A stretch of DNA of 12,505 nt from a virus. Lineage: Duplodnaviria > Heunggongvirae > Uroviricota > Caudoviricetes. The notes under the pieces are model-generated. The model ran no database searches, was not told the DNA's origin, and saw only the letters and a program-made list of their open reading frames with translations. Shown piece after piece: positions 1 to 12,505 of the stretch (positions within the stretch are counted from its first letter, which is position 1; every line of letters begins with the position of its first letter). The DNA lies in the IMG/VR virus record IMGVR_UViG_2778261350_000008, positions 1 through 12,505 of that record. One strand, given 5' to 3'. The position numbers were made by a program, and so were the translations under genes.

Positions 1-273
1 AGCCGGATTGGCGTGGGGAATCTCTACCGGCTGATGCGCGGCTATGCCACCGGCGGTTATGTCGGTACACCGGGCAGCATGGCGGAGAGCCGGTCGCAGG
101 CGTCCGGGAAGTTTGAGCAGAATAACCATGTGGTGATTAACAACAACGGCACGAACGGGCAGATAGGTCCGGCTGCTCTGAAGGCGGTGTATGACATGGC
201 CCGCAAGGGTGCCCGTGATGAAATTCAGACGCAGATGCGCGATGGTGGCCTGTTCTCCGGAGGTGGACGATGA
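1..273 (+). CDS. H: Tail tape-measure protein H, C-terminal fragment (5' end lies outside the window)
   Basis: Frame 1 is open from base 1 to the TGA at 271-273. The translation (...GNLYRLMRGYATGGYVGTPGSMAESRSQ...IQTQMRDGGLFSGGGR) matches my recollection of the lambda gpH C-terminus. Its stop overlaps the next ATG (ATGA), as in lambda H/M. Confidence 0.8.
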   Translation, partial: SRIGVGNLYRLMRGYATGGYVGTPGSMAESRSQASGKFEQNNHVVINNNGTNGQIGPAALKAVYDMARKGARDEIQTQMRDGGLFSGGGR

Positions 274-599
274 AGACCTTCCGCTGGAAAGTGAAACCCG
301 GTATGGATGCGGCTTCGGCTCCTTCCGTCAGGGAAGTGCGCTTTGGTGATGGTTACTCCCAGCGCTCGCCTGCCGGGCTGAATGCCGACCTGAAAACGTA
401 CAGCGTGACGCTCTCTGTCTCACGCGAGGAGGCCACGGCGCTGGAGTCGTTTCTGGCTGAACACGGGGGCTGGAAGGCCTTTCTGTGGACGCCGCCTTAT
501 GGCTACCGGCAGATAAAGGTGACCTGCGCAAAGTGGACAGCGCGGGTCAGCATGCTTCGTGTTGAGTTCAGCGCAGAGTTTAAACAGGTGGTGAACTGA
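270..599 (+). CDS. M: Minor tail protein M
   Basis: 109 aa, the same length as lambda gpM and near-identical as recalled (MKTFRWKVKPGMD...LRVEFSAEFKQVVN). Position H-M-L is conserved and the gene is overlap-coupled on both sides. Confidence 0.9.
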   Translation: MKTFRWKVKPGMDAASAPSVREVRFGDGYSQRSPAGLNADLKTYSVTLSVSREEATALESFLAEHGGWKAFLWTPPYGYRQIKVTCAKWTARVSMLRVEFSAEFKQVVN

Positions 600-1297
600 T
601 GCAGGATATCCGACAGGAAACACTGAATGAATGCACCCGTGCGGAGCAGTCGGCCAGCGTGGTGCTCTGGGAAATCGATCTGACAGAGGTCGGTGGAGAA
701 CGTTATTTTTTCTGTAATGAGCAGAACGAAAAAGGCAAGTCGGTTATCTGGCAGGGGAGAGAGTATCAGGCGTATCCCATTCAGGGGAGTGGTTTTGAAC
801 GGAATGGCAAAGGTGCCAGTACGCGGCCCACGCTGGCAGTCTCTAACCTGTACGGCATGGTCACCGGTATGGTGGAAGATATGCAGAGTCTGGTCGGCGG
901 AACGGTGGTCCGGCGCAAGGTCTACGCCCGTTTTCTGGATGCGGTGAACTTCATCAACGGAAACAGCGACGCCGATCCGGAGCAGGAGGTGATCAGCCGC
1001 TGGCGCATTGAGCAGTGCAGCGAACTGAGCGCGGTGAGCGCCTCTTTTGTACTGGCCACGCCGACGGAAACGGATGGCGCTGTTTTCCCGGGGCGTGTCA
1101 TGCTGGCCAACACCTGCACCTGGACCTATCGCGGTGATGAGTGCGGTTATGATGGTCCGGCTGTCGCGGATGAATATGACCAGCCGACGTCCGATATCAC
1201 GAAGGATAAATGCAGCAAATGCCTGAGTGGCTGTAAGTTTCGCAATAACGTCGGCAACTTTGGCGGCTACCTTTCCATTAACAAACTTTCGCAGTAA
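599..1297 (+). CDS. L: Minor tail protein L
   Basis: 232 aa, the lambda gpL length. The start overlaps the M stop (TGATG). Cys-rich C-terminus (CTWTYRGDECGYDG...CSKCLSGCKF) as in gpL-family proteins. Confidence 0.9.
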   Translation: MQDIRQETLNECTRAEQSASVVLWEIDLTEVGGERYFFCNEQNEKGKSVIWQGREYQAYPIQGSGFERNGKGASTRPTLAVSNLYGMVTGMVEDMQSLVGGTVVRRKVYARFLDAVNFINGNSDADPEQEVISRWRIEQCSELSAVSASFVLATPTETDGAVFPGRVMLANTCTWTYRGDECGYDGPAVADEYDQPTSDITKDKCSKCLSGCKFRNNVGNFGGYLSINKLSQ

Positions 1298-1302
1298 ATC
1301 CC

Positions 1303-2046
1303 ATGACAGAGACAGAATCAGCGATTCTGGCGCACGCCCGGCGATGTGCGCCAGCGGAGTCGTGCGGCTTCGTGGTGAGAACGCCGGAGGGGGAAAGGTA
1401 TCTTCCCTGCGTGAATATCTCCGGTGAGCCGGAGGCGTATTTCCGGATGGCTCCGGAAGACTGGCTGCAGGCAGAGATGCAGGGTGAGATTGTGGCGCTG
1501 GTCCACAGCCATCCCGGTGGACTGCCCTGGCTGAGTGAGGCTGACCGGCGGCTGCAGGTGCAGAGTGATTTGCCGTGGTGGCTGGTCTGCCGGGGGGCGA
1601 TTCACAGGTTCCGCTGTGTGCCGCATCTTACCGGGCGGCGCTTTGAGCACGGGGTGACGGACTGTTACACGCTGTTCCGGGATGCTTACCATCTGGCGGG
1701 AATTGAGATGCCGGATTTTCATCGTGAGGATGACTGGTGGCGTAACGGTCAGAATCTCTATCTGGATAACCTTGAAAGACATGGTTTTTACCGTGTCGCA
1801 CTGACAGAGGCACAGCCGGGCGATGTGCTGCTGTGCTGCTTTGGTTCATCGGTGCCGAATCATGCCGCCATTTACTGCGGCGACGGTGAGCTGCTGCACC
1901 ATATTCCTGAACAACTGAGTAAACGAGAGAGGTACACCGACAAATGGCAGCGACGCACACACTCCCTCTGGCGTCACCGGGCATGGCACGCATCTGCCTT
2001 TACGGGGATTTGCAGCGATTTGGCCGCCGCATCGACCTTCGTGTGA
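1303..2046 (+). CDS. K: Tail tip assembly protein K (JAB/MPN-like plus NlpC/P60-like domains)
   Basis: 247-aa ORF starting 5 bp after L. Contains a JAMM-like motif HSHPGGLPWLSEAD (H-x-H-x7-S-x2-D) and an NlpC/P60-like Cys/His pair (GVTDCYTLF ... NHAAIYCGDGELLHH). An internal ATG at 1447 would give the 199-aa form usually annotated for lambda K. The 3' end overlaps I by 103 nt, as in lambda. Confidence 0.85.
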   Translation: MTETESAILAHARRCAPAESCGFVVRTPEGERYLPCVNISGEPEAYFRMAPEDWLQAEMQGEIVALVHSHPGGLPWLSEADRRLQVQSDLPWWLVCRGAIHRFRCVPHLTGRRFEHGVTDCYTLFRDAYHLAGIEMPDFHREDDWWRNGQNLYLDNLERHGFYRVALTEAQPGDVLLCCFGSSVPNHAAIYCGDGELLHHIPEQLSKRERYTDKWQRRTHSLWRHRAWHASAFTGICSDLAAASTFV

Positions 2047-2579
2047 AAACGGGGGCCGAAGCCATCCGGGCGCTGGTCACACAGCTTCCCGCCTTTCGTC
2101 AGAAACTGAACGACGGCTGGTATCAGGTACGCATTTCCGGACAGGATATATCCCATGAAACATTGTTCACACAGATGAATGACACACTGCCTCCGGGCGC
2201 GGTAATACATATTGTCCCTCGCCTGGAGGGGGCAAAAAACGGAGGGGTTTTTCAGGTCGTGGCCGGTGCTGTGCTTGCTGTTGTCGGTTATGCATTAAGC
2301 TGGACAGGCATAGGTGCGGTTATTGGCAACCTTGGTGTGGCCATGATGCTTGGAGGGGTGGCACAGATGCTGGCCCCTAAATCCAGAACTCCCCGTACAC
2401 AGACAACGGATAACGGCAAACAGAATACCTATTTTTCATCACTGGATAACATGATTGCCCAGGGGAATGTTCTGCCCGTTCTGTACGGTGAAATGCGCGT
2501 GGGGTCGCGGGTGGCATCTCAGGAGATCAGCACGGCAGATGAAGGGGATGGTGGCCAGATAGTGGTGATTGGTCGATGA
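1944..2579 (+). CDS. I: Tail assembly protein I
   Basis: 211 aa. N- and C-terminal regions match lambda gpI as recalled (MAATHTLPLASPGMARICLYGDLQRFGRR... ; ...NGKQNTYFSSLDNMIAQGNVLPVLYGEMRVGSRV...). A hydrophobic Gly/Ala-rich middle is present. Starts inside the 3' end of K in another frame. Confidence 0.85.
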   Translation: MAATHTLPLASPGMARICLYGDLQRFGRRIDLRVKTGAEAIRALVTQLPAFRQKLNDGWYQVRISGQDISHETLFTQMNDTLPPGAVIHIVPRLEGAKNGGVFQVVAGAVLAVVGYALSWTGIGAVIGNLGVAMMLGGVAQMLAPKSRTPRTQTTDNGKQNTYFSSLDNMIAQGNVLPVLYGEMRVGSRVASQEISTADEGDGGQIVVIGR

Positions 2580-2597
2580 TGAAATACGTTTTATGTG

Positions 2598-2626
2598 AAA
2601 CCGCCTCCGGGCGGTTTTGTCGTTTA
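2598..2626 (+). terminator. GC-rich hairpin plus T-rich tract in the I-J intergenic gap (terminator-like or attenuator-like)
   Basis: Inverted repeat AAACCGCC (2598-2605) / GGCGGTTT (2610-2617) with loop TCCG, followed by TGTCGTTT. It sits 14 bp before the J start, so it cannot be a fully efficient terminator if J is expressed. Confidence 0.35.
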
Positions 2627-2639
2627 TGGAGCGTGAGTA

Positions 2640-5600
2640 ATGGGTAAAGGTGGTGGTAAGGCGCATACGCCCCGTGAAGCCAGAGATAATCTGAAATCAT
2701 CCCAGATGCTGAGTGTGATTGATGCCATCAGCGAAGGACCGGTTTACGGGCCTGTTGACGGGCTGAAAAGCGTGTTTCTGAACGGCACGCCGGTACTGGA
2801 CCGTGAGGGGAATGCTAACTTTTCCGGTGTCACTGTGGTGTTCCGTGCCGGTGAACAGGAGCAGACACCACCGGAGGGCTTTGAATCCTCCGGTTCAGAA
2901 ACGGTGCTGGGGACGGAAGTGAAATATGACACGCCGATCACCCGGACCATCACGTCGGCAAATATCGATCGTCTGCGCCTGACCTTCGGCGTGCAGGCAC
3001 TGGTGGAAACCACCTCAAAGGGGGACCGTAACCCCTCTTCTGTCCGCCTGCTGGTTCAGATACAGCGTAACGGTGGCTGGGTGACGGAAAAAGACATCAC
3101 CATTAAGGGCAAAACCACGTCCCAGTATCTGGCCTCGGTGGTGGTGGATAACCTGCCGCCGCGACCGTTCAGTATCCGGATGCGCAGGATGACGCCGGAC
3201 AGCACCACAGACCAGTTACAGAACAAAACGCTCTGGTCGTCATACACTGAAATCATCGATGTGAAACAGTGCTACCCGAACACGGCACTGGTCGGCGTAC
3301 AGGTGGACTCGGAGCAGTTCGGCAGTCAGCAGGTGAGCCGCACTTACCATTTTCGGGGGCGTATTCTGCAGGTGCCGTCGAACTATAACCCGCAGACGCG
3401 GCAGTACAGTGGTATCTGGGACGGAACACTTAAACCGGCATACAGCAACAACCCGGCCTGGTGTCTGTGGGACATGCTGACCCATCCGCGCTACGGCATG
3501 GGGAAACGTCTTGGTGCGGCGGATGTGGACAAATGGGCGCTGTATGTCATCGGCCAGTACTGCGACCAGTCAGTGCCGGACGGCTTTGGTGGCACGGAGC
3601 CGCGCATCACCTGTAATGCCTGGCTGACCACACAGCGTAAGGCGTGGGATGTTCTCAGCGATTTCTGCTCGGCGATGCGCTGTATGCCGGTATGGAACGG
3701 GCAGACGCTGACGTTCGTGCAGGACCGGCCGTCGGATAAGGTGTGGACCTATAACCGAAGTAATGTGGTGATGCCGGATGATGGCGCTCCGTTCCGCTAC
3801 AGCTTCAGCGCCCTGAAGGACCGCCATAATGCCGTTGAGGTGAACTGGAGTGACCCGGATAACGGCCAGGAGACGGCGACAGAGCTTGTGGAGGACACAC
3901 AGGCCATTGCCCGTTACGGTCGTAACGTCACGAAGATGGATGCCTTTGGCTGTACCAGCCGGGGGCAGGCACACCGCGCCGGGCTGTGGCTGATTAAAAC
4001 AGAACTGCTGGAAACGCAGACCGTGGATTTCAGCGTCGGCGCAGAAGGGCTTCGCCATGTACCGGGCGATGTTATTGAAATCTGTGATGATGACTATGCG
4101 GGGATCAGCACCGGTGGTCGTGTGCTGGCGGTGAACAGCCAGACCCGGACGCTGACGCTCGACCGTGAAATCACGCTGCCATCCTCCGGCACCACGCTGA
4201 TAAGCCTGGTTGACGGAAGTGGCAATCCGGTCAGCGTGGAGGTTCAGTCCGTCACCGACGGTGTGAAGGTGAAAGTGAGCCGTGTTCCTGACGGCGTTGC
4301 AGAATACAGCGTGTGGGGGCTGAAGCTGCCGACGCTGCGCCAGCGCCTGTTCCGCTGCGTCAGTATCCGTGAGAACGATGACGGCACGTATGCCATCACC
4401 GCCGTGCAGCATGTACCGGAAAAAGAAGCCATCGTGGATAACGGGGCGCACTTTGACGGTGACCAGAGCGGCACGGTGAATGGTGTCACGCCGCCGGCAG
4501 TGCAGCATCTGACCGCCGAAGTCACCGCAGACAGCGGGGAATACCAGGTGCTGGCGCGATGGGACACGCCGAAGGTGGTGAAGGGTGTGAGCTTCCTGCT
4601 TCGTCTGACCGTGGCAGCGGACGACGGCAGTGAGCGGCTGGTCAGCACAGCCAGGACGACGGAAACCACATACCGCTTCAGGCAGCTGGCGCTGGGGCGT
4701 TACACGCTGACGGTACGGGCGGTAAATGCCCAGGGGCAGCAGGGGGATCCGGCGTCGGTATCGTTCCGGATTGCCGCACCGGCAGCGCCGTCACGGATTG
4801 AGCTGACGCCGGGCTATTTTCAGATAACCGCCACGCCGCATCTTGCGGTTTATGATCCGACGGTACAGTTTGAGTTCTGGTTCTCGGAAAAGCGGATTGC
4901 GGATATCAGGCAGGTTGAAACCACAGCCCGCTATCTTGGCACGGCGCTGTACTGGATAGCTGCCAGTATCAATATCAAACCGGGCCATGATTATTACTTT
5001 TATATCCGCAGTGTGAACACCGTTGGCAAATCGGCATTCGTGGAGGCTGTTGGTCAGCCGAGTGATGATCCATCCGGCTATCTGGATTTTTTCAAAGGAG
5101 AGATAGGGAAAACCCATCTGGCTCAGGAGCTGTGGACGCAGATTGATAACAGTCAGCTTGCGCCTGACCTGGCTGAAATCAGGACGTCCATTACGGGTGT
5201 CAGCAATGAAATCACGCAGACTGTCAATAAGACACTGGAAGACCAGAGTGCAGCGATCCAGCAGATACAGAAGGTTCAGGTTGATACCAGTAATGACCTG
5301 AACAGCATGTGGGCTGTGAAGCTGCAACAGATGAAGGACGGACGCCTTTATATCGCGGGTATTGGTGCCGGTATTGGGAACACCCCCGACGGCATGCAGA
5401 GTCAGGTGCTGCTGGCGGCAGACAGGATTGCGATGATTAATCCTGCAAATGGCAACACAAAGCCGATGTTTGTGGGGCAGGGCGATCAGATATTCATGAA
5501 CGACGTGTTCCTGAAATATCTGACGGCTCCCACCATTACCAGTGGTGGTAATCCTCCGGCATTTTCCCTGACACCGGACGGGCGGCTGACGGCGAAAAAT

Positions 5601-6119
5601 GCGGATATCAGCGGTAACGTGAACGCGAACTCCGGGACGCTCAACAATGTCACGATTAATCAGAACTGCCGGATTCTGGGAAAACTGTCAGCCAATCAGA
5701 TTGAAGGCGATCTCGTTAAAACAGTGGGCAAAGCTTTCCCGCGGGACTCCCGTGCACCGGAGCGGTGGCCATCAGGGACCATTACCGTCAGGATTTATGA
5801 CGATCAGCCGTTTGACCGGCAGATTGTTATTCCGGCGGTGGCTTTCCGCGGTGCCAGACATGAGCGGGAGAATAGCGATACTTATTCGTCATGCCGTCTG
5901 ATAGTGAAGAAAAACGGTGCTGAAATTTATAACCGAACGGCTCTGGATAATACGCTGATTTACACGGGTGTTATTGATATGCCTGCAGGCAGTGGCGTAA
6001 TGACACTGGAGTTTTCTGTATCAGCATGGTGGGTAAATGGCTGGTATCCCACAGCGAGTATCAGCGATTTGCTGGTTGTTGTGATGAAGAAATCCACTGC
6101 AGGCATCACGATTAGCTGA
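2640..6119 (+). CDS. J: Tail tip / host-specificity protein J (central tail fibre)
   Basis: 1159-aa ORF (lambda J is 1132 aa) directly after I. GGAG lies 9 nt upstream of the ATG. Position and size are diagnostic; the divergent C-terminal ~250 aa would be the receptor-binding part. Confidence 0.9.
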
Positions 6120-6137
6120 ATTTTATAACCCAGATAC

Positions 6138-6163
6138 GGGCGCCAGAAATGGCGCCTTTTTTA
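6138..6163 (+). terminator. Rho-independent terminator after J
   Basis: Perfect palindromic stem GGCGCC (6139-6144) / GGCGCC (6151-6156) with loop AGAAAT, immediately followed by TTTTTTATT. Confidence 0.6.
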
Positions 6164-6186
6164 TTACAGAAAAGCGAGAGGTAATT

Positions 6187-6786
6187 ATGCGTAAAGTTTG
6201 TGCCGCCATTTTGTCCGCTGCCATCTGTCTGGTCGTATCCGGTGCGCCTGCATGGGCGTCTGAGCAGCAGGCCACACTGAGTGCAGGGTATCTTCATGCC
6301 CGGACGAACGCTCCCGGCAGCGATAATCTGAACGGGATTAACGTGAAATACCGTTATGAGTTTACGGACACGCTGGGGCTGATTACGTCCTTCAGTTATG
6401 CCAGTGCCGAAGATGAGCGAAAAACGCACTACAGCGATACCCGCTGGCATGAAGATTCCGTGCGTAACCGCTGGTTCAGCGTGATGGCGGGGCCGTCTGT
6501 GCGCGTGAATGAATGGTTCAGCGCGTATGCGATGGCGGGTATGGCTTACAGCCGGGTGTCGACTTTTTCCGGGGATTATCTCCGCGTAGCTGACAACACG
6601 GGGAAAACGCACGATGTGCTGACCGGAAGTGCTGACGGTCGCCACAGCAACACGTCTCTGGCGTGGGGCGCTGGCGTGCAGTTTAACCCGACCGAATCCG
6701 TGGCCATTGATGTCGCTTATGAAGGTTCCGGCAGTGGCGACTGGCGTACTGACGGTTTCATCGTGGGTGTTGGTTATAAATTCTGA
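6187..6786 (+). CDS. lom: Lom / Ail / PagC-family outer-membrane beta-barrel protein (lysogenic-conversion type)
   Basis: 199 aa. N-terminal signal peptide MRKVCAAILSAAICLVVSGAPAWA. The C-terminus ...VDVAYEGSGSGDWRTDGFIVGVGYKF matches the lambda Lom C-terminus as recalled. GAGAGG RBS; lambda-like position after J. Confidence 0.85.
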   Translation: MRKVCAAILSAAICLVVSGAPAWASEQQATLSAGYLHARTNAPGSDNLNGINVKYRYEFTDTLGLITSFSYASAEDERKTHYSDTRWHEDSVRNRWFSVMAGPSVRVNEWFSAYAMAGMAYSRVSTFSGDYLRVADNTGKTHDVLTGSADGRHSNTSLAWGAGVQFNPTESVAIDVAYEGSGSGDWRTDGFIVGVGYKF

Positions 6787-6808
6787 TTGTTAACACAGCT
6801 TTACGACA

Positions 6809-6835
6809 GCCCGCCGGTTCAGGCGGGCTTTTTTG
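6809..6835 (+). terminator. Rho-independent terminator after lom
   Basis: Stem GCCCGCC (6809-6815) / GGCGGGC (6822-6828), loop GGTTCA, followed by TTTTTTG. Confidence 0.6.
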
Positions 6836-6845
6836 TGGGGTGAAT

Positions 6846-9200
6846 ATGGCAGTAAAGATTTCAGGTGTACTGAAAGATGGTGCAGGTAAGCCGGTACAAA
6901 ACTGCACTATTCAACTGAAAGCCAGACGTAACAGCACCACGGTGGTGGTGAACACGGTGGCCTCAGAAAATCCGGATGAAGCAGGTCGTTACAGCATGGA
7001 TGTTGAGTACGGTCAGTACAGCGTCAGTCTGTTGGTGGAGGGGTTCCCGCCGTCACATGCCGGGACCATCACCGTCTATGAAGATTCCCGACCCGGTACG
7101 CTGAATGATTTTCTCGGTGCCATGACGGAGGATGATGCCCGTCCGGAGGCACTGCGGCGTTTTGAACTGATGGTGGAAGAAGCGGCACGTAACGCTGAAG
7201 CCGCCTCTAAGAGCGCAGCGGCGGCAAAGAAATCCGAAACTGCAGCGGCATCATCGAAGAACGCGGCGAAAACCTCAGAAACGAATGCAGCTAACAGCGC
7301 ACAGGCGGCAGCGACCTCACAGACTGCATCAGCAAACTCCGCGACAGCAGCCAAAAAATCAGAAACCAACGCGAAAAACAGCGAGACAGCCGCAAAGACG
7401 AGTGAAACTAACGCAAAGTCCAGCCAGACGGCAGCGAAGACCAGCGAAACGAATGCCAAAGCCAGTGAAACTGCGGCGAAAAGCAGTCAGGATGCAGCAG
7501 CCGAAAGCGAGAGTGCTGCAGCCGGTTCTGCGACTTCAGCAGCTGGATCAGCAACTGCTGCGGCTAACAGCCAGAAAGCCGCGAAGACGAGCGAAACTAA
7601 CGCAAAGTCCAGCCAGACGGCAGCGAAGACCAGCGAAACGAATGCCAAAGCCAGCGAAACTGCGGCGAAAAACAGTCAGGATGCAGCAGCCCAAAGCGAG
7701 AGTGCCGCAGCTGGTTCTGCAACAGCGGCAGCTAATAGCCAAAAAGCTGCAAAAACCAGTGAAACTAACGCAAAGACGAGTGAAACAAAAGCAGCAGCCA
7801 GCGAGACAGAAGCAACGTCAGCCGCAACAAGAGCAGAGAATGCAGCCCGGATTGCAGAAGATGCCGCTGATCCTGCTTCTGTCCCTCCGCTTCCTGATAT
7901 CTGGCTACCCTTGAATGATTCTCTGGAAGCGATAACAGGGTATGCCCCGGGCTATAAAACAATAACCATCGGCAGTGATGAAATAACAATGCCTGTTAAT
8001 GGCATATGCCAATTTAGCCGGGCTTCATCTGCAACGTATATTGATAAGTCCGGGCATATTACCGTGGCAGGGAATAACGTTCCTCGTTTTGAAAAATATG
8101 GTTTGCTGATAGAGAATCAGCGAACAAACATGTTCGTAAATAGTTTTAATCCTGATGCCTGGAATAAAAGCGGTGGTATATCTGTAACATCATCAACAGA
8201 TGAATTTGAGTTTAAATATGGACGTTTCACGGTAGGAAGCGATATAGCAGGAACGACAACAGGGCGAAATATATGCACAGTTGCTGGTAACAAAGGCATA
8301 GATGTGACTGGCGATGAACAGTACAGTAAAGGTCCGTATGTTACCGCGTCGTTCAGGGTAAGAAGTGATCTCAATGTTCGCGCACGTATCCGTTTTGAAC
8401 GGTATAACTCGGAAGGATACACCTTCCTTTGCGACGCCTATTTGTCATTACAGACCCATGAACTACAAATTACTGGTGGCAATGCCCAGCTATTAACAGC
8501 AAACTTTGAAATCGATCCAGGTAGTGGATGGATATATTTTCAGGCAACACTGAAATGTCTGCCAGAATGGGGAATGGTTGGTACGCAGCTGCAAATTGCA
8601 GCCGACAGAGCAGTGGGGGCTTTTGCAACAGGTGACTGGATAGAAGTAACCACCCCGCAATTCGAGTATGGTGCCTGTGCAACTTCCTTTATCATAACGA
8701 CAACAGAGCCAGCGACTCGTGCATCAGATTTATGTAAATTTCCGCTGATGAAAAATATGTATACCATGCCTTTTACGTTCATGGTGGAAGTCCATAAAAA
8801 CTGGTTTATTTCTCATAATGCTGCACCGCGTGTCATTGATTCAGAAAATCACCAGTCCGGAGGCCCATTTATTATGGGGTTTGGTTCTTCTGGAACTATC
8901 AGTCAGGATGGTTATTCGTATTGCGATATAGGCGGGGCTAACCGGCGTGTATATGAGTCATGCGGAGTAAGAGATCTCGTTATGGGATTCAGGGTTAAGG
9001 CTGACGGCATGACATGCTCATTTGCAAATAAGAATATAAGCACTGAAACCAAAACAGTATGGAAATATATTCGTGAAGCAGCCGTGATTCGTATCGGGGG
9101 GCAAACGACGACAGGATTACGACACCTTAATGGTCATATAAAAAACCTCCGTTTCTGGAACAGAGCATTGTCAGATACGCAGATTAAGGAATACGTATAA
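6846..9200 (+). CDS. stf: Side tail fibre protein, mosaic: lambda Stf-like N-terminus, Ala/Ser/Thr repeat shaft, foreign C-terminal receptor-binding region with a lectin-like (LamG/ConA-type) end
   Basis: N-terminus MAVKISGVLKDGAGKPVQNCTIQLKARRNSTTVVVN...VYEDSRPGTLNDFLGAMTEDDARPEALRRFELMVEE matches lambda Stf as recalled. The ORF track begins at a GTG (6840); the ATG at 6846 gives the lambda-like start. Residues ~120-330 are low-complexity SETNAK-type repeats. From about nt 7880 the DNA is visibly AT-richer, and the protein ends ...LRHLNGHIKNLRFWNRALSDTQIKEYV, which resembles the terminal strand motif of LamG-like jelly-roll domains. Confidence 0.8.
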   Translation: MAVKISGVLKDGAGKPVQNCTIQLKARRNSTTVVVNTVASENPDEAGRYSMDVEYGQYSVSLLVEGFPPSHAGTITVYEDSRPGTLNDFLGAMTEDDARPEALRRFELMVEEAARNAEAASKSAAAAKKSETAAASSKNAAKTSETNAANSAQAAATSQTASANSATAAKKSETNAKNSETAAKTSETNAKSSQTAAKTSETNAKASETAAKSSQDAAAESESAAAGSATSAAGSATAAANSQKAAKTSETNAKSSQTAAKTSETNAKASETAAKNSQDAAAQSESAAAGSATAAANSQKAAKTSETNAKTSETKAAASETEATSAATRAENAARIAEDAADPASVPPLPDIWLPLNDSLEAITGYAPGYKTITIGSDEITMPVNGICQFSRASSATYIDKSGHITVAGNNVPRFEKYGLLIENQRTNMFVNSFNPDAWNKSGGISVTSSTDEFEFKYGRFTVGSDIAGTTTGRNICTVAGNKGIDVTGDEQYSKGPYVTASFRVRSDLNVRARIRFERYNSEGYTFLCDAYLSLQTHELQITGGNAQLLTANFEIDPGSGWIYFQATLKCLPEWGMVGTQLQIAADRAVGAFATGDWIEVTTPQFEYGACATSFIITTTEPATRASDLCKFPLMKNMYTMPFTFMVEVHKNWFISHNAAPRVIDSENHQSGGPFIMGFGSSGTISQDGYSYCDIGGANRRVYESCGVRDLVMGFRVKADGMTCSFANKNISTETKTVWKYIREAAVIRIGGQTTTGLRHLNGHIKNLRFWNRALSDTQIKEYV
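7392..7748. repeat. In-frame tandem duplication inside the stf shaft (two units of about 189 and 168 bp)
   Basis: 7392-7580 and 7581-7748 are near-identical; unit 1 carries an extra 21 bp (7 aa, SAAGSAT). Each encodes AAKTSETNAKSSQTAAKTSETNAKASETAAK(S/N)SQDAAA(E/Q)SESAAAGSAT...AAANSQKA. Shorter, degenerate copies of the same motif flank it from about 7230 to 7800. Confidence 0.7.
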
Positions 9201-9469
9201 TGCGGGATATAACATTACGATTCGATAACAGAGAACAGTTTAACGCAATTGTATATGACAGTGGCCTGTTCAGTCTTGAAGAAGAAAATGGGATTCTTGT
9301 TGATGTTATTGGCGGCATTATTGATTACGAGGAGCCAGAAAACGAAAGATGTACAGGCATTGATCGCGGTGGTTTTTTCGTAAACATGAGGATTGTTGAT
9401 GGCAGTAAAAACATATCTTCTTTAATGCCTTTCATTACGACAGATCAGCATGTAAGGACATGGGCTTAA
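9200..9469 (+). CDS. Hypothetical 89-aa acidic protein, start-coupled to stf (candidate cognate fibre chaperone or accessory protein)
   Basis: Its ATG overlaps the stf stop (TAATG at 9198-9202). AAGGAA lies 8 nt upstream. AT-rich like the stf 3' half. I recognise no homologue. The same frame stays open for 39 codons after its TAA. Confidence 0.45.
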   Translation: MRDITLRFDNREQFNAIVYDSGLFSLEEENGILVDVIGGIIDYEEPENERCTGIDRGGFFVNMRIVDGSKNISSLMPFITTDQHVRTWA

Positions 9470-9593
9470 TGGAGCTTGCTTGTTCAGGTAGCCAGAGAAT
9501 CAGACGACAGAATAACAGCACTGGAAGAAGAAAACGCAGAATTAAGACAAAGATTATCTGCAATTGAGGCGGCGCTTGCGTCTGAATAATATT

Positions 9594-9618
9594 AAGGGGC
9601 CGAGCGCCCCGTTTTATT
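9594..9618 (+). terminator. Terminator-like hairpin ending the stf / small-ORF transcription unit
   Basis: Stem GGGGC (9596-9600) / GCCCC (9606-9610), loop CGAGC, followed by GTTTTATT. Confidence 0.45.
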
Positions 9619-9631
9619 GGGTAGGATGAAA

Positions 9632-9925
9632 ATGGATATAACACCTTTCCTTCATGCACTTTGTGCTGTGGCTGCGCAGGTACTGATTGGCCTTTTTACC
9701 GGAAACTGGGTTTACGGTGCGATAGCTGGTTGTACGTTCTTCATTGCGCGGGAACACACCCAGGCAGAATATTGCTGGATTGAAATGTTCGGGCATGGCA
9801 AGCGAATGAATATGCCGTGGTGGGGCGGTTTTGATCCGCGTGCTTGGGATGTGGCAAGCCTGATGGATTTTGCTGTGCCGGTGGTGGCGTGTCTGCTGGT
9901 CTGGCTGTTGGTTAATCGTGGGTGA
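9632..9925 (+). CDS. Hypothetical small inner-membrane protein with two predicted TM helices (prophage cargo candidate)
   Basis: MDITPFLHALCAVAAQVLIGLFTGNWVYGAIAGCTFFIA...DVASLMDFAVPVVACLLVWLLVNRG: two hydrophobic segments flank a charged, Trp-rich loop (EHTQAEYCWIEMFGHGKRMNMPWWGGFDPRAWD). AGGA lies 6 nt before the ATG at 9632. In-frame alternatives are ATG 9626 and TTG 9617. Codon use looks coding-like. No homologue recognised. Confidence 0.55.
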   Translation: MDITPFLHALCAVAAQVLIGLFTGNWVYGAIAGCTFFIAREHTQAEYCWIEMFGHGKRMNMPWWGGFDPRAWDVASLMDFAVPVVACLLVWLLVNRG

Positions 9926-9935
9926 AAAAAGGTGA

Positions 9936-10057
9936 GCTGTATATGCAACGGAGGAAGAAACCCCGTTGCTGGCGGCATGGAAGAAGTATCGGGTGCTGCT
10001 CAACCGAACTATACATCAGTAGCTCCGGACATTGAGTGGCCTGTACAACCGGAATAA
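9936..10057 (+). pseudogene. tfa: 3' remnant of a lambda-type tail fibre assembly gene (tfa), truncated and frameshifted
   Basis: One frame reads [28 protein letters not shown]. A second frame continues YTSVAPDIEWPVQPE* (ATG-initiated MEEVSGAAQPNYTSVAPDIEWPVQPE at 9977-10057). Together these match the lambda Tfa C-terminus as I recall it (...[36 protein letters not shown]...). No N-terminal portion is present; the segment begins right after the stop of the membrane-protein gene. Confidence 0.6.
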
Positions 10058-10079
10058 ATATCAGGAGGAGTAATTAATC

Positions 10080-11215
10080 GTGTCGACTCTGATTTCCGGC
10101 GTATTAAAAGATGGTGCAGGTATACCGCTGGCTGCCAGATTATCCTGAAATCCCGTGTAAACACCTCAGATGTGGTGATGTCTGTTGTTGCGCATATTGT
10201 AACCGGGCAAAACGGGGAATATGCGTTTGAGGCCCGGACGGGGAAGTACAGCGTTTATCTGAAGACTGACTGGCGTAATGAGTTTCAGGTTGGTGTTATT
10301 TCTGTTTATGAGGACTCACAACCGGGCACACTGAACGACTTCCTGATAGCAGTGAGTGATGCTGATTTGAAGCCGGACGTTCTGCGGCGGTTCGATGAGC
10401 TGGCGAGGCGTGTCCATGAAGACGCGAACAGCGCAGAACAGTTTGCCGGAGATGCCCGTCGTGCTGTGGATGAACTGGGCGGTAAGGTTCAGGACGATAT
10501 TCGTGACCGTACACCGGACCGTCTGGCTCTGCCCGGTGCTTACGGCTTCGGCGGAATATTCAGCCGCTCGGAAGCTCTGTCGTTTCAGGGGGTATCTGAT
10601 TTTGGTGCGTGGCTACAGAAAGCCACGCCGGGGCGTTATCCGGTCACTGTTGCGGATTCTTCTGCATTGCTGTTGGGCACCACGAAATTTAACGGCAACA
10701 TTGATGTGCTGTGGTCACCCTTTGATAACGACGGGTCGGACACAGCGCACAAATTCAAAACGCTGTTGTGTTACAACGAGCCACGTGCCGGAGAGCACGG
10801 GCTACACCTGCTCCAGTACTGGTACGAGGGCGACAACCTGCGGGTTGCGGGCAGTATGATAGTCTGCGACGCTCCGTCGCTGGCGACACTGCTGTCAGCA
10901 ACAGCGGGAGCGGACCCGTCAGGGTTCTACCGTTATCCGGCGGTGGGTTCCCTGTTGCTGGCAGCGTACCACGGGGCATCTGCCGGTGCTGGCGGGGTGA
11001 GTATTGCAACAGGCGACGTTGTTCCGGGCTCCTGTCTGGGGCCGGTGAGTATTCCGTGCGCGGTGAACGAAGGCGGCACAACTCCGTCGCCGCTGCGGGC
11101 GTTTGTTGGTGGTGCCGGACAGTACAATTTCCCCGGACGTTACCAGGCGTTATCCGGTGCAAATAATGTCCGTGGAAACAATGGGTTTATCTGTCTGTTT
11201 GTGCGCGTTGAGTAG
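10080..11215 (+). pseudogene. Second tail fibre gene (Stf N-terminal paralogue), disrupted by a 1-nt frameshift near 10131-10133
   Basis: The GTG at 10080 (GGAGGAG upstream) opens a frame reading VSTLISGVLKDGAGIPLAARLS*, which stops at 10146-10148. The -1 frame continues ...CQIILKSRVNTSDVV and joins the 347-aa ORF 10172..11215. The joined product aligns with the stf N-terminus (ISGVLKDGAG ; C-Q/T-I-x-LK ; VYEDSQPGTLNDFL ; LRRF-EL). The C-terminal part is Gly/Ala-rich and GC-rich. Confidence 0.6.
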
Positions 11216-11222
11216 GTGAGAA

Positions 11223-11816
11223 ATGAACGCAGTAAAAGATATTCGCAATCCGGTGCATCTCGGAAACGGCGCGGTTGACTGTGAGGTGCTGTTTGAGGGG
11301 CGCAGCGAGTACGTTGTTTATACGGCTGCGCCGGGCGACGCAGCCCCGACAGGTCAGCGTATCTGGCAGGAACTACAGAGCGGCAAATGGGGCGAAATTG
11401 CCCCGTTCACGGCCACGCCGGAACTGATAGCGGCGGCGAAGGATGCAAAACGTCAGGAAATTGAGGTGTGGCGTACCGAACAGGAAGCGCAGTCGTTCAC
11501 GTTTGAGTGGAACGGTCGAACCTGGAACGCGGGGCCGTCCTCACTGGCCCGGCTCACGCCTGCGATTACGGCGGCGGAATACGCCGGCGAGCAGGCTGTT
11601 ACCTGGAGCGATACAACCAACGAGCCGGTAAACCTGACAGTGCAGGAACTGAAATCGCTGGCCGTCGCACTGGCTCAGGCACTCTCTGAGCGGAACAACG
11701 CGATTTATCGTCGCCAGCGGGAGATGAAGGATACGTTAAACACCCTGGAGAATCTGGCAGAGGTGCAGGCGTTTAAGGTTGGAGAACAATCTATATTGGG
11801 GGTAAGCCGTATTTAG
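11223..11816 (+). CDS. Putative tail fibre assembly / chaperone protein (assigned by position)
   Basis: 197-aa ORF 8 bp after the stf2 stop, with AGGTGAG RBS. Contains a W-N-G-x-(T/A)-W motif ([11 protein letters not shown]) reminiscent of Tfa proteins (lambda Tfa has WNGTAW), but it lacks the lambda-type Tfa C-terminus seen in the remnant at 9936-10057. Confidence 0.5.
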
Positions 11817-12120
11817 CTCTTGCGCGGTTACACGCCTCATTGACGACGCCGTTCTCGCCAGACATGGCGAATTCTCTGCATGTGGATGATCGATTTTCAT
11901 ATATCGTGCAGCAGGCATTTTTGCCCGGAGTTCCAGCAAGGGCAACACATCTGGGGTTTTTCTGGTTTGTACCGATCATGCATCGGTGAAAAGGCGATAC
12001 TTGTTCAGTAAGTCTGGCGGGAATGGTGCCGCCGGCATCGTCGGCTTCGGCCCAGTAAAAAGAGACGCGGAAAAATGCACAACAGGCGCCACACGTCATG
12101 CATGGATTCAGATTGCTCAT
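11791..12120 (-). CDS. ykgJ: YkgJ-family cysteine-cluster protein (putative Zn/Fe-binding; UPF0153)
   Basis: 109 aa, beginning [25 protein letters not shown], i.e. the C-x2-C-G-x-C-C signature of the YkgJ family, with further C-terminal Cys residues ([17 protein letters not shown]). Convergent with tfa2 and overlapping it by 26 bp. Confidence 0.65.
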
Positions 12121-12139
12121 AATTCACCAGTACAGCTAT

Positions 12140-12188
12140 AAATCATAAAGAAAACAGCGGTACGTCGTATGAAAGAACTTACCGCTGT
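12140..12188 (-). terminator. Possible minus-strand terminator downstream of the DinI-like gene
   Basis: Inverted repeat ACAGCGGTA (12154-12162) / TACCGCTGT (12180-12188). On the minus strand it is followed by TTTTCTTTATGATTT. The 17-nt loop is large, hence the low confidence. Confidence 0.3.
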
Positions 12189-12256
12189 TGGCTGGTGAAC
12201 TTTTCGATAGTGCGAGTATTGAATGATTTCCAGCCGTTACCGATTTTACTCGTTAA

Positions 12257-12505
12257 TTAGCGAACAAACCACTCGTCAGCAGACTCCCAGGTATCTTTCA
12301 GCGTCTCCTGAACAAAAGTTTTTGCAGAATCTTTATCGGCGGTGCGAGTAACTGAAAGGCCATCGTTGCTGGTGGCTTTTATGATCACTTCTACATCGTC
12401 ATAACGCTTACTGATGCGTCGGGTTAATTCTTCCTTTAACGCATCCACAGCACCGTTTGGCATTTTAGTCATTTTTTCTTTGGCTATGCAGATCTCAATA
12501 CGCAT
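12257..12505 (-). CDS. DinI-family protein (DNA-damage-inducible protein I-like; modulator of RecA filament activity)
   Basis: 82 aa, [31 protein letters not shown]...[16 protein letters not shown]. Co-linear with E. coli DinI as recalled (MRIEVTIAK...AIDAL..EL.RRI...ETWESADDWFV). The ATG is the last three bases of the window (minus strand), so the promoter lies outside. Confidence 0.85.

Follow-up and report, generated by a model that had tools for sequence, protein, structure and literature searches.

A probably decaying copy of a modular, widely circulating side-tail-fibre locus in a lambdoid prophage of E. coli

What has taken the place of the 3' end of a lambda-type side-tail-fibre gene, and do the genes found there form one unit? 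We addressed this question for a 12,505-nucleotide stretch of DNA from a tailed virus (Caudoviricetes; IMG/VR record IMGVR_UViG_2778261350_000008, positions 1 to 12,505; hereafter the window), in which a side-tail-fibre gene, stf1, is followed by two small genes, p89 and p97, and by the non-coding end of a lambda-type tfa gene. An earlier note, made from the letters alone, had read positions 7880-9935 as a single foreign cassette that had replaced the 3' end of stf and most of tfa. We consider it quite probable that a modular side-tail-fibre locus, in wide circulation among coliphages, is present here in a decaying copy. The kind of locus, a multi-protein or branched lateral tail fibre, is known, and the functions of p89 and p97 are not; the mosaicism of the tail fibre is ordinary here and adds little. 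Coordinates refer to the window, and features lie on the plus strand unless stated otherwise.

The first part of the fibre is that of lambda. The stf1 gene (6840..9200) is intact and encodes 786 aa in one continuous frame from a GTG at 6840, the annotated start of its relatives being the ATG at 6846, which opens MAVKISG. Stf1 matches phrog_1419 over its full length (E=0) and shares 97.6% identity with the Stf proteins of phage PhiR11_1 and strain 582. The genes J, lom and stf follow one another at the end of the late operon, as is typical of a lambda-type Stf (Pfam Ail_Lom, E=4.8e-122), and the N-terminal anchor domain (aa 3-133; 6846..7238) is of lambda type (PF08400 phage_tail_N, E=3.7e-70), with aa 3-96 matching chain Ta of PDB entry 9e7m, deposited as 'Tail fiber protein' (E=3.8e-51). 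At the DNA level, positions 6659-7195 are 85.6% identical to lambda, and at the protein level residues 3-274 are 61% identical to lambda Stf (orf-401). Behind the anchor lies a shaft rich in alanine, serine and threonine (7239..7886), built of tandem repeats with periods of 189, 42 and 21 nt and with an AT skew of up to 0.67; its protein is 83% identical to that of phage 2G7b, and the repeats also align with the fibre of the T5-like phage mar004NP2. We envisage that the lambda-type N-terminal domain would fix the fibre to the tail tip, followed by the repeat shaft and then by the tip module.

Antisense open reading frames (ORFs) of 127, 64, 53 and 48 aa were also found within the repeat shaft (7076-7742, minus strand). 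They are comparable to lambda's annotated orf206b, which is antisense to stf, and look like by-products of the biased, A/C-rich repeats.

Where does the likeness to lambda end? The tip module (aa 350-786; 7887..9200) starts with PLPDIW (aa 350, nt 7887), part of a conserved neck motif, PLPDxWxPxNDSL..., and further comprises a β-sandwich resembling a carbohydrate-binding module (CBM) and a C-terminal domain without a reliable model. The receptor-binding part is not of the orf-314 type, since a BLASTP search at E<=0.01 gave no Stf1 match to lambda orf-314. In sliding windows, the GC content is 0.55 up to 7950, falls to 0.39-0.46 over 7950-9600 and exceeds 0.5 again by 9600-9900. Feature by feature, GC and GC at third codon positions (GC3) amount to 0.548 and 0.484 in the anchor and shaft, 0.435 and 0.374 in the tip, 0.389 and 0.344 in p89, 0.430 and 0.289 in the remnant of a second fibre gene described below, and 0.524 and 0.520 in p97. 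Much of what the earlier note had seen was therefore borne out: a lambda-like and GC-rich N-terminus and shaft, a turn to AT-rich sequence at about 7880, and a C-terminus unrelated to lambda. Uniform GC across stf, which it had named as speaking against a replacement, is not what we found (0.548 in the anchor and shaft versus 0.435 in the tip). The AT-rich stretch does not, as it had proposed, reach 9935; it ends at about 9590, and p97 is of normal GC.

The search of other fibre scaffolds that the earlier note had suggested was productive: homologues of the tip, 31-51% identical to it, are spread over 206 phage records from T5-like Markadamsvirinae, Drexlerviridae, Queuovirinae, rV5-like myoviruses and lambdoids. 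Identity to 2G7b at the DNA level (84%) continues to stf nt 1156 and then collapses, which argues that the conserved neck motif is the likely crossover site. The locus would offer a natural example of exchange at this motif, in which temperate lambdoids share a fibre module with virulent phages of the T5-like, Drexlerviridae and Queuovirinae groups.

The fold of the tip gives a hint of its function. In the confident part of the structural model, about aa 435-610, the tip forms a CBM-like β-sandwich, a β-jelly-roll resembling CBM4/CBM22-type modules. Based on this fold and on reports on the lateral fibres of related phages (PMC8594841), we infer that the Stf1 tip most likely binds a surface glycan; weighing against this, the model is poor outside aa ~435-610 (mean predicted local distance difference test, pLDDT, 52), so that aa 371-431 and 613-786 are not modelled reliably and the C-terminal third carries no structural assignment; to go by its sequence, the last domain might be LamG-like. 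Residues 423-628 also score above the cut-off of NF048003, the 'phage head spike fiber' domain (model GTA_spike_fiber; 48.2 bits versus 36), a likeness by profile score in which the domain of Stf1 sits in a tail fibre tip and not in a head spike. The Prokaryotic Genome Annotation Pipeline (PGAP) names one fragment accordingly: of the intact stf1 ORF it makes two features, a pseudogene labelled 'partial, missing C-terminus' and a 403-aa 'phage head spike fiber domain-containing protein', whereas the near-identical stf gene of strain 582 is annotated whole. This split looks like an annotation artefact, possibly from the low-complexity repeat shaft.

Is the copy in the window complete? Between p89 and p97, strain 582, PhiR11_1 and 2G7b encode an intact 346-aa 'tail fiber domain-containing protein', hereafter fibre-346. 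The window retains of it a 3' remnant consisting of the last 37 codons and the stop (9474..9589; ORF 9476-9589), not an independent gene; the match to the 346-position profile phrog_4563 covers positions 310-345 (E=5.6e-15), and PGAP labels the remnant 'tail fiber domain-containing protein, missing N-terminus'. Alignment with strain 582 places the junction of a 933-bp deletion at 9473..9474, by which the second fibre gene lost its ribosome-binding site and about 308 codons from its start. The carriers of the deletion are the eight best-matching genomes, each aligning as a single piece, while all 22 further genomes listed among the 79 described below align as two pieces around an insert. The alternative of an insertion in the relatives is already contradicted by the in-frame 37-codon remnant. 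Thus, the 'one or two small coupled ORFs' of the earlier note resolve into one genuine gene, p89, and a fibre remnant at 9476-9589, and the note missed the degradation of this copy, in which the second fibre gene is deleted.

Strain 582 shows the whole order stf, p89, fibre-346, p97 and tfa scar undamaged; phage PhiR11_1 (recorded host MG1655) has all four genes intact, as does, with a divergent allele, phage 2G7b. A separately encoded second fibre behind the primary one is therefore a property of the relatives and not of the window. In strain 582, fibre-346 contains a Peptidase_S74 domain (PF13884, E=8.7e-14, aa 227-278), and the window retains only the segment after it. The N-termini of the second fibres, those of the lambdoid 346-aa protein and of its counterparts in the T5-like mar004NP2, in tuinn (Drexlerviridae), and in KurtStettler and JenP1 (Queuovirinae), share the peptide MxTxTVIPxDIxxLK, found in 64 phage records; fibre-346 has 12 of its first 17 residues in common with the ltfB orthologue of mar004NP2, and 16 of 24 with tuinn p166.

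This arrangement recalls the LtfA/LtfB fibres of DT57C and DT571/2 (Golomidova et al. 2016, PMC4728585; Ayala et al. 2023, PMC10713586). Genetics in DT57C indicate that LtfB attaches through LtfA to give a branched fibre (PMC4728585, with indirect support in PMC10713586), and the N-terminal 45 aa of LtfB match phiEco32 gp15, a known branched-fibre partner (PMC4728585). Common to both systems are tandem fibre genes, here in the intact relatives, and a short second fibre with a putative docking peptide at its N-terminus and a C-terminal Peptidase_S74 chaperone, as tested on an intact relative. The T5-like mar004NP2 carries its second fibre gene, described as an ltfB orthologue (PMC6563131), behind the same pair of tip and 92-aa protein (p92) as the lambdoid locus. 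In contrast, LtfA of DT57C itself has a C-terminal S74 chaperone, and a gene of the p89 type is not described there, whereas the fibre of the window has a CBM-like tip followed by p89, a lambda-type and not a T5-type anchor, and a deleted branch gene. By analogy, the intact locus would most plausibly be the lambdoid form of a lateral fibre made of several proteins and probably branched, and the copy in the window one without the branch. In the intact relatives, the 346-aa fibre encoded after p89 would combine a self-cleaving Peptidase_S74 chaperone with an N-terminal peptide like the one through which LtfB is joined to LtfA, and the resulting branched fibre would offer a second specificity; in the present prophage lineage the second fibre gene has been lost through the 933-bp deletion, with 37 codons left. 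Two points weigh against this analogy: the likeness of the docking peptides, for which the mar004NP2 LtfB orthologue served in the comparison, spans no more than 17-24 residues, 67-76% of them identical, and its E-values are weak; and the primary fibre of DT57C has a tip that differs from that of Stf1. If the analogy holds, the window provides a natural example of a branch fibre lost by deletion in a resident prophage.

What, then, is the role of the small gene directly behind the tip? The p89 gene (9200..9469) encodes a small acidic protein of 89 codons (phrog_1361, E=1.2e-29), and its ATG overlaps the stop codon of stf1. Homologues lie directly after the tip in lambdoid, T5-like, Drexlerviridae, Queuovirinae and rV5-like phages. 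In mar004NP2, tuinn, KurtStettler and JenP1, a 92-aa ORF overlaps or abuts the stop codon of the fibre gene and a second fibre-type gene follows 10-13 nt on; these small ORFs of other phage families are homologous to p89 at 31-54% identity. Across 10 phage pairs, the identity of p89 roughly tracks that of the tip. The p89 family is common, yet uncharacterised and of unassigned function: no relatives were found in Pfam, NCBIfam, PADLOC or PDB sequence and profile searches, and a word-indexed homologue search with p89 returned 4 fragments.

The same layout is found in KurtStettler/Bas22 (Maffei et al. 2021, PMC8594841), in which a lateral tail fibre gene is followed, with the same spacing, by a 92-aa hypothetical protein and an S74 'putative lateral tail fiber chaperone'; the fibre is 51% identical to the Stf1 tip over 99% of the tip. 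The BASEL siphoviruses differ in being virulent and in having neither p97 nor a tfa scar in the loci examined. According to the BASEL paper, T5-like and small siphoviruses may build their lateral tail fibres from a single protein, from two or from more; it treats such loci as variable O-antigen or glycan binders, the small ORF not being assigned there (PMC8594841).

Because p89 accompanies the tip everywhere examined, diverges with it and starts on the stop codon of stf1, and because an intact Tfa is missing from the locus, p89 may be a tip-specific folding or assembly factor that functionally replaces Tfa and possibly stays bound; the chances of this seem to us about evenly balanced. Against it weighs that the co-divergence with the tip is based on a handful of pairs. 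The annotation of mar004NP2 flags the fibre, and not the p89-family protein, by mass spectrometry, which fits a chaperone but is weak negative evidence. A distal adhesin that stays on the tip is known in gp38 of T2-type phages, and one may ask whether p89 is such a protein, or a structural adaptor that carries the second fibre, and no chaperone at all. We hold this to be possible but doubtful. The conserved spacing of p89 between two fibre genes would suit an adaptor, and its faster evolution relative to the tip (34% versus 47% identity, window versus 2G7b) is as expected of a surface-exposed specificity determinant. The mass-spectrometric result in mar004NP2 speaks against a structural part, and a pure adaptor is contradicted by rV5-like phages and many lambdoids, in which tip and p89 occur and a second fibre does not; among the latter, Lambda_ev058 has only ~290 nt between tip and p97. 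We therefore rejected p89 as a mere adaptor for the second fibre. If the preferred reading of p89 as a tip-specific assembly factor is right, retargeting of engineered lambda-type particles with the Stf1 tip would need the co-transfer of p89.

Does p97 belong to the same module? The p97 gene (9632..9925) encodes 97 aa and a predicted three-helix membrane protein (phrog_1443, E=1.8e-57), the small membrane protein that the earlier note had anticipated. The AlphaFold2 model has a mean pLDDT of 87.5 and helices at residues 4-23, 26-53 and 74-96. In a 26-sequence alignment reaching down to 51% identity, the residues D2, H8, Q16, R40-Y47, M61-D68, W72, S76 and D79 are invariant, with the core REHTQAEY...MPWWGGFD. 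A profile search of 1.84 billion representatives gave 451 clusters at 50% identity with E<=0.001; among the best 150 hits listed, all stand-alone proteins of 58-146 aa, there was no fusion to hint at a function. Relatives were found neither in Pfam, NCBIfam, PDB and BFVD (Foldseek) nor in PADLOC, and a literature search under PHROG ids, accession numbers and 'ybl63' returned nothing. The p97 family is thus common, yet uncharacterised, and its function is unassigned.

The distribution of p97 differs from that of the tip. Behind the tips of 2G7b and Lambda_4C10, which are only 46-47% identical to that of Stf1, p97 is 93-97% identical. Full-length copies of p97 were confined, among the contexts seen, to temperate phages and prophage-like contigs, in which the receptor-binding genes ahead of it differ widely, and p97 is absent from the four virulent fibre-module loci examined (mar004NP2, tuinn, KurtStettler and JenP1). 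In the P22-like JEP4 a homologue stands after the tailspike gene and before int, in phiHAP-1 and a Pantoea contig after a fibre assembly gene, in Comamonas after a gpJ-like gene, and in several metagenomic phages directly before holin and endolysin genes; all these contexts are 3' ends of receptor-binding genes. Since p97 is near-identical behind different tips, absent from the virulent carriers, and elsewhere follows tailspikes or fibre chaperones, it is therefore neither part of the fibre nor tip-specific.

The block is accordingly composite, an AT-rich fibre module (tip, p89 and second fibre) joined to a p97 gene of normal GC, because GC content, phage distribution and conservation all divide there. 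From its composition, the three-gene AT-rich part is as expected for exchange with AT-rich virulent phages. Between the window and 2G7b, identity amounts to 83% in the shaft, 47% in the tip, 34% in p89, 73% in the second fibre and 97% in p97. With the same junctions, the entire block is present in 79 complete E. coli genomes (those covering at least 80% of the query) and in 4 isolated, plaque-forming phages such as PhiR11_1.

Could the region nevertheless have arisen as the earlier note had it, by a single swap in this prophage that brought in one cassette with small genes serving a tip-specific host-range or exclusion function? The step in composition with lambda-type sequence on both flanks would fit, as would two proteins, p89 and p97, of no known family. 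This version is already largely refuted, and we regard it as improbable: its junctions recur in many genomes (79 for the block, 1910 for p97 with the scar), the block falls into two parts by GC, distribution and conservation, one of its small genes is a deletion remnant, and the near-identity of p97 behind divergent tips makes a tip-specific function unlikely. In the four virulent loci the tip, p89 and the second fibre form a set that lacks p97, and p97 occurs without this set behind other receptor-binding genes, so that the idea of one cassette fails. What stands of the proposed swap is a mosaic locus with a foreign tip that brings its own small gene; that it happened here does not. As a site for an undescribed host-range or exclusion function the region is mostly a recognisable multi-protein or branched lateral fibre, with p89 and p97 as the parts still to be assigned.

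What might p97 do on its own? Receptor- or entry-blocking proteins encoded next to receptor-binding genes include Cor of phi80 and N15 and gp15 of HK97. The Llp protein of T5 is likewise a receptor- or entry-blocking protein encoded beside the receptor-binding genes (PMC9586334). p97 resembles these proteins in being a small envelope protein encoded right after receptor-binding genes, with full-length copies seen only in temperate phages and prophage-like contigs. It differs from them in lacking any relation in sequence or fold, in having no lipobox, and in a cysteine at position 11 that is not conserved; moreover, Llp and Cor are matched to a receptor, whereas p97 is nearly invariant behind different tips. 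A Cor/Llp-like lipoprotein was rejected for want of a lipobox: p97 has no basic N-region, the residues H-A-L occupy positions -3 to -1 before Cys11, and that position is variable (C, A, I, V) in the alignment of 26 homologues. Our best guess, a tentative one, is that p97 may act in the envelope to exclude incoming phage independently of the fibre receptor. If so, it could block DNA entry or alter a shared envelope component, resulting in superinfection exclusion that does not depend on the receptor of the fibre.

Nearly as likely, though again no more than possible, is a role of p97 in the lysis machinery, as a holin, an antiholin or a membrane protein that times lysis, in place of exclusion or conversion. 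Three predicted membrane helices in about 100 aa are what one would expect of a class I holin, and in metagenomic phages and a Comamonas prophage the homologue lies immediately upstream of genes for a holin (PF16083), a muramidase or a GH108 endolysin. The resemblance to a class I holin does not extend to the tail, the family or the neighbourhood: the C-terminus, without a charged tail, ends 0-11 residues past the last helix, neither p97 nor 10 distant relatives gave a Pfam holin match, and no endolysin gene lies near p97 in the window, lysis genes as neighbours being confined to distant homologues. In lambdoid phages the lysis cassette is normally far from the end of the tail-fibre operon, and it is absent from the window, which counts against a lysis role. 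No lysis gene adjoins p97 in JEP4 or phiHAP-1, the shared denominator of the p97 contexts is the 3' end of receptor-binding genes and not lysis genes, and the loop motif is unusually strictly conserved and polar. In two of the metagenomic phages, a 174-aa protein (4419-4943 and 4475-4999), in one of them DUF7338, precedes the p97 homologue, and holin and endolysin genes follow.

In the window a putative terminator-like element, a GC hairpin followed by a T-rich tract (9596..9620; GGGGCCGAGCGCCCC then GTTTTATTGG in a consensus scan), stands after the stop codon of the second fibre and before p97, and it is kept in strain 582. In JEP4 and phiHAP-1, p97 overlaps the upstream late gene, which speaks for a part in lysis. 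A hairpin that precedes p97 here and an overlap elsewhere do not point to one time of expression, which counts against the preferred reading. No sigma-70-like promoter was found upstream of p97 by consensus scan, and p97 as an independently transcribed moron is accordingly not supported. Returning to envelope action as the preferred role, we think it conceivable, without much confidence, that p97 founds an undescribed inner-membrane family that acts broadly on the envelope in superinfection exclusion or else tunes lysis, and that p89 represents a new Tfa-replacing class for CBM-type tips. As one of the commonest uncharacterised membrane proteins of E. coli prophages, p97 is a reasonable candidate for screens of exclusion or lysis control.

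How old is the replacement? Its right-hand edge can be seen 18 bp past the p97 stop codon, where, as the earlier note had rightly placed it, a decayed tfa begins. This non-coding scar (9944..10057) holds the last ~38 codons of a lambda-type tfa, frameshifted and without a start codon. At the DNA level, positions 9944-10043 share 83% identity with the last part of lambda tfa (encoding Tfa aa 156-191); by tblastn, Tfa aa 156-176 and 179-191 match in two different frames, with a 1-nt gap relative to strain 582. An intact Tfa is not encoded, the PF02413 (Caudo_TAP) match being confined to profile positions 118-131 (E=0.032; 14.8 bits versus a cut-off of 22.1). The comparison with lambda Stf/Tfa is therefore close at both ends, in the position directly after J and lom, the PF08400 anchor and the tfa remnant, and fails between them, where the tip is unrelated to orf-314, p89 follows the tip, and only ~38 out-of-frame tfa codons are left. 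With lambda-type flanks on both sides and compositionally foreign DNA between them, the locus is a mosaic. We picture the scar as the right-hand edge of an old replacement that would have taken the 3' end of a lambda-type stf and most of tfa.

The segment of p97 and scar matches 1910 of 5426 complete E. coli genomes (35%), of which 1190 cover at least 80% of the segment, usually at 90-95% identity, and it is present in dozens of lambdoid phages as well. Homology between genomes stops at the tfa stop codon, beyond which lie appY-ompT in strain 582, sitABCD in Lambda_4C10, a methyltransferase gene in 2G7b and a second fibre gene in the window; a homology that ends at one point with different neighbours marks the scar, therefore, as the old end of the late operon. 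Because the junctions are common to the 79 genomes with the whole block and the 1910 with p97 and scar, the swap is old and inherited, not private to this prophage or recent. Relaxed recombination at fibre genes between lambdoid phages and resident prophages is documented (PMC3945230). A further natural example offered by this locus would be an old tfa scar carried along with its neighbour gene in a third of complete E. coli genomes.

Is the tfa-like stretch a scar at all? One could suppose that the arrangement is ancestral for this class of fibre, and that the stretch is a chance likeness or a functional short ORF, as its conservation beside p97 in very many genomes might suggest. We regard this as highly improbable. 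The 83% identity runs over 100 nt collinearly with Tfa aa 156-191, as far as the stop codon of tfa; the tfa frame lacks a start codon and is closely preceded by a stop codon, and the window carries an additional frameshift. That homology to different genomes ends at the tfa stop codon likewise argues against an ancestral ORF, and we retain the reading of an old scar.

Two side observations concern relatives and parallels of the locus. In Lambda_4C10, three 'mobile element protein' genes lie between stf and the p92 gene (2137-4553 of its examined stretch); its stf is cut short at 642 aa, a second fibre gene is missing, and sitABCD lies past the tfa scar. A paper on Gifsy-1 Stf does not deal with the architecture found here.

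Directly after the tfa scar, adjacent to the block and not part of it, follows a second side-tail-fibre gene, stf2 (10080..11215; phrog_2636). It has its own ribosome-binding site and reads VSTLISGVLKDGAGIPLA, then shifts frame near 10133, after about codon 18; the long ORF resumes at a GTG at 10172, without the first ~33 residues of the PF08400 anchor, which is matched from profile position 34. From these lesions, stf2 is probably a pseudogene. Behind it, a DUF4376 protein is encoded (11223..11816; PF14301, E=1.5e-16; phrog_1141, E=5.1e-78), a likely assembly partner of stf2. The two genes (10040-11830) have a GC of 0.57-0.58 and a GC3 of 0.59-0.64, and of the 5426 complete E. coli genomes none has them beyond the 8 with the 933-bp deletion. 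High GC and the restriction to 8 genomes suggest a recent arrival from a source other than the usual prophage pool of E. coli, in tandem to the decayed first fibre locus.

These 8 genomes, a lambdoid prophage of E. coli KC-Dl-1 and 7 other complete genomes, are 100% identical to the window. In the identical locus, PGAP lists tail genes, gpJ, Ail/Lom, tail-fibre fragments, two hypotheticals, a tfa pseudogene, the second tail-fibre gene and DUF4376, and further on ykgJ-family and dinI-like genes on the opposite strand, then an integrase adjoining dusA. The tape-measure gene upstream of the window is annotated by PGAP as frameshifted, a further sign of prophage decay. At the other side, the YkgJ-family cysteine-cluster and DinI-like genes (11791-12505, minus strand) form the prophage end, beyond which, in the source genome, lies a tyrosine integrase at dusA.

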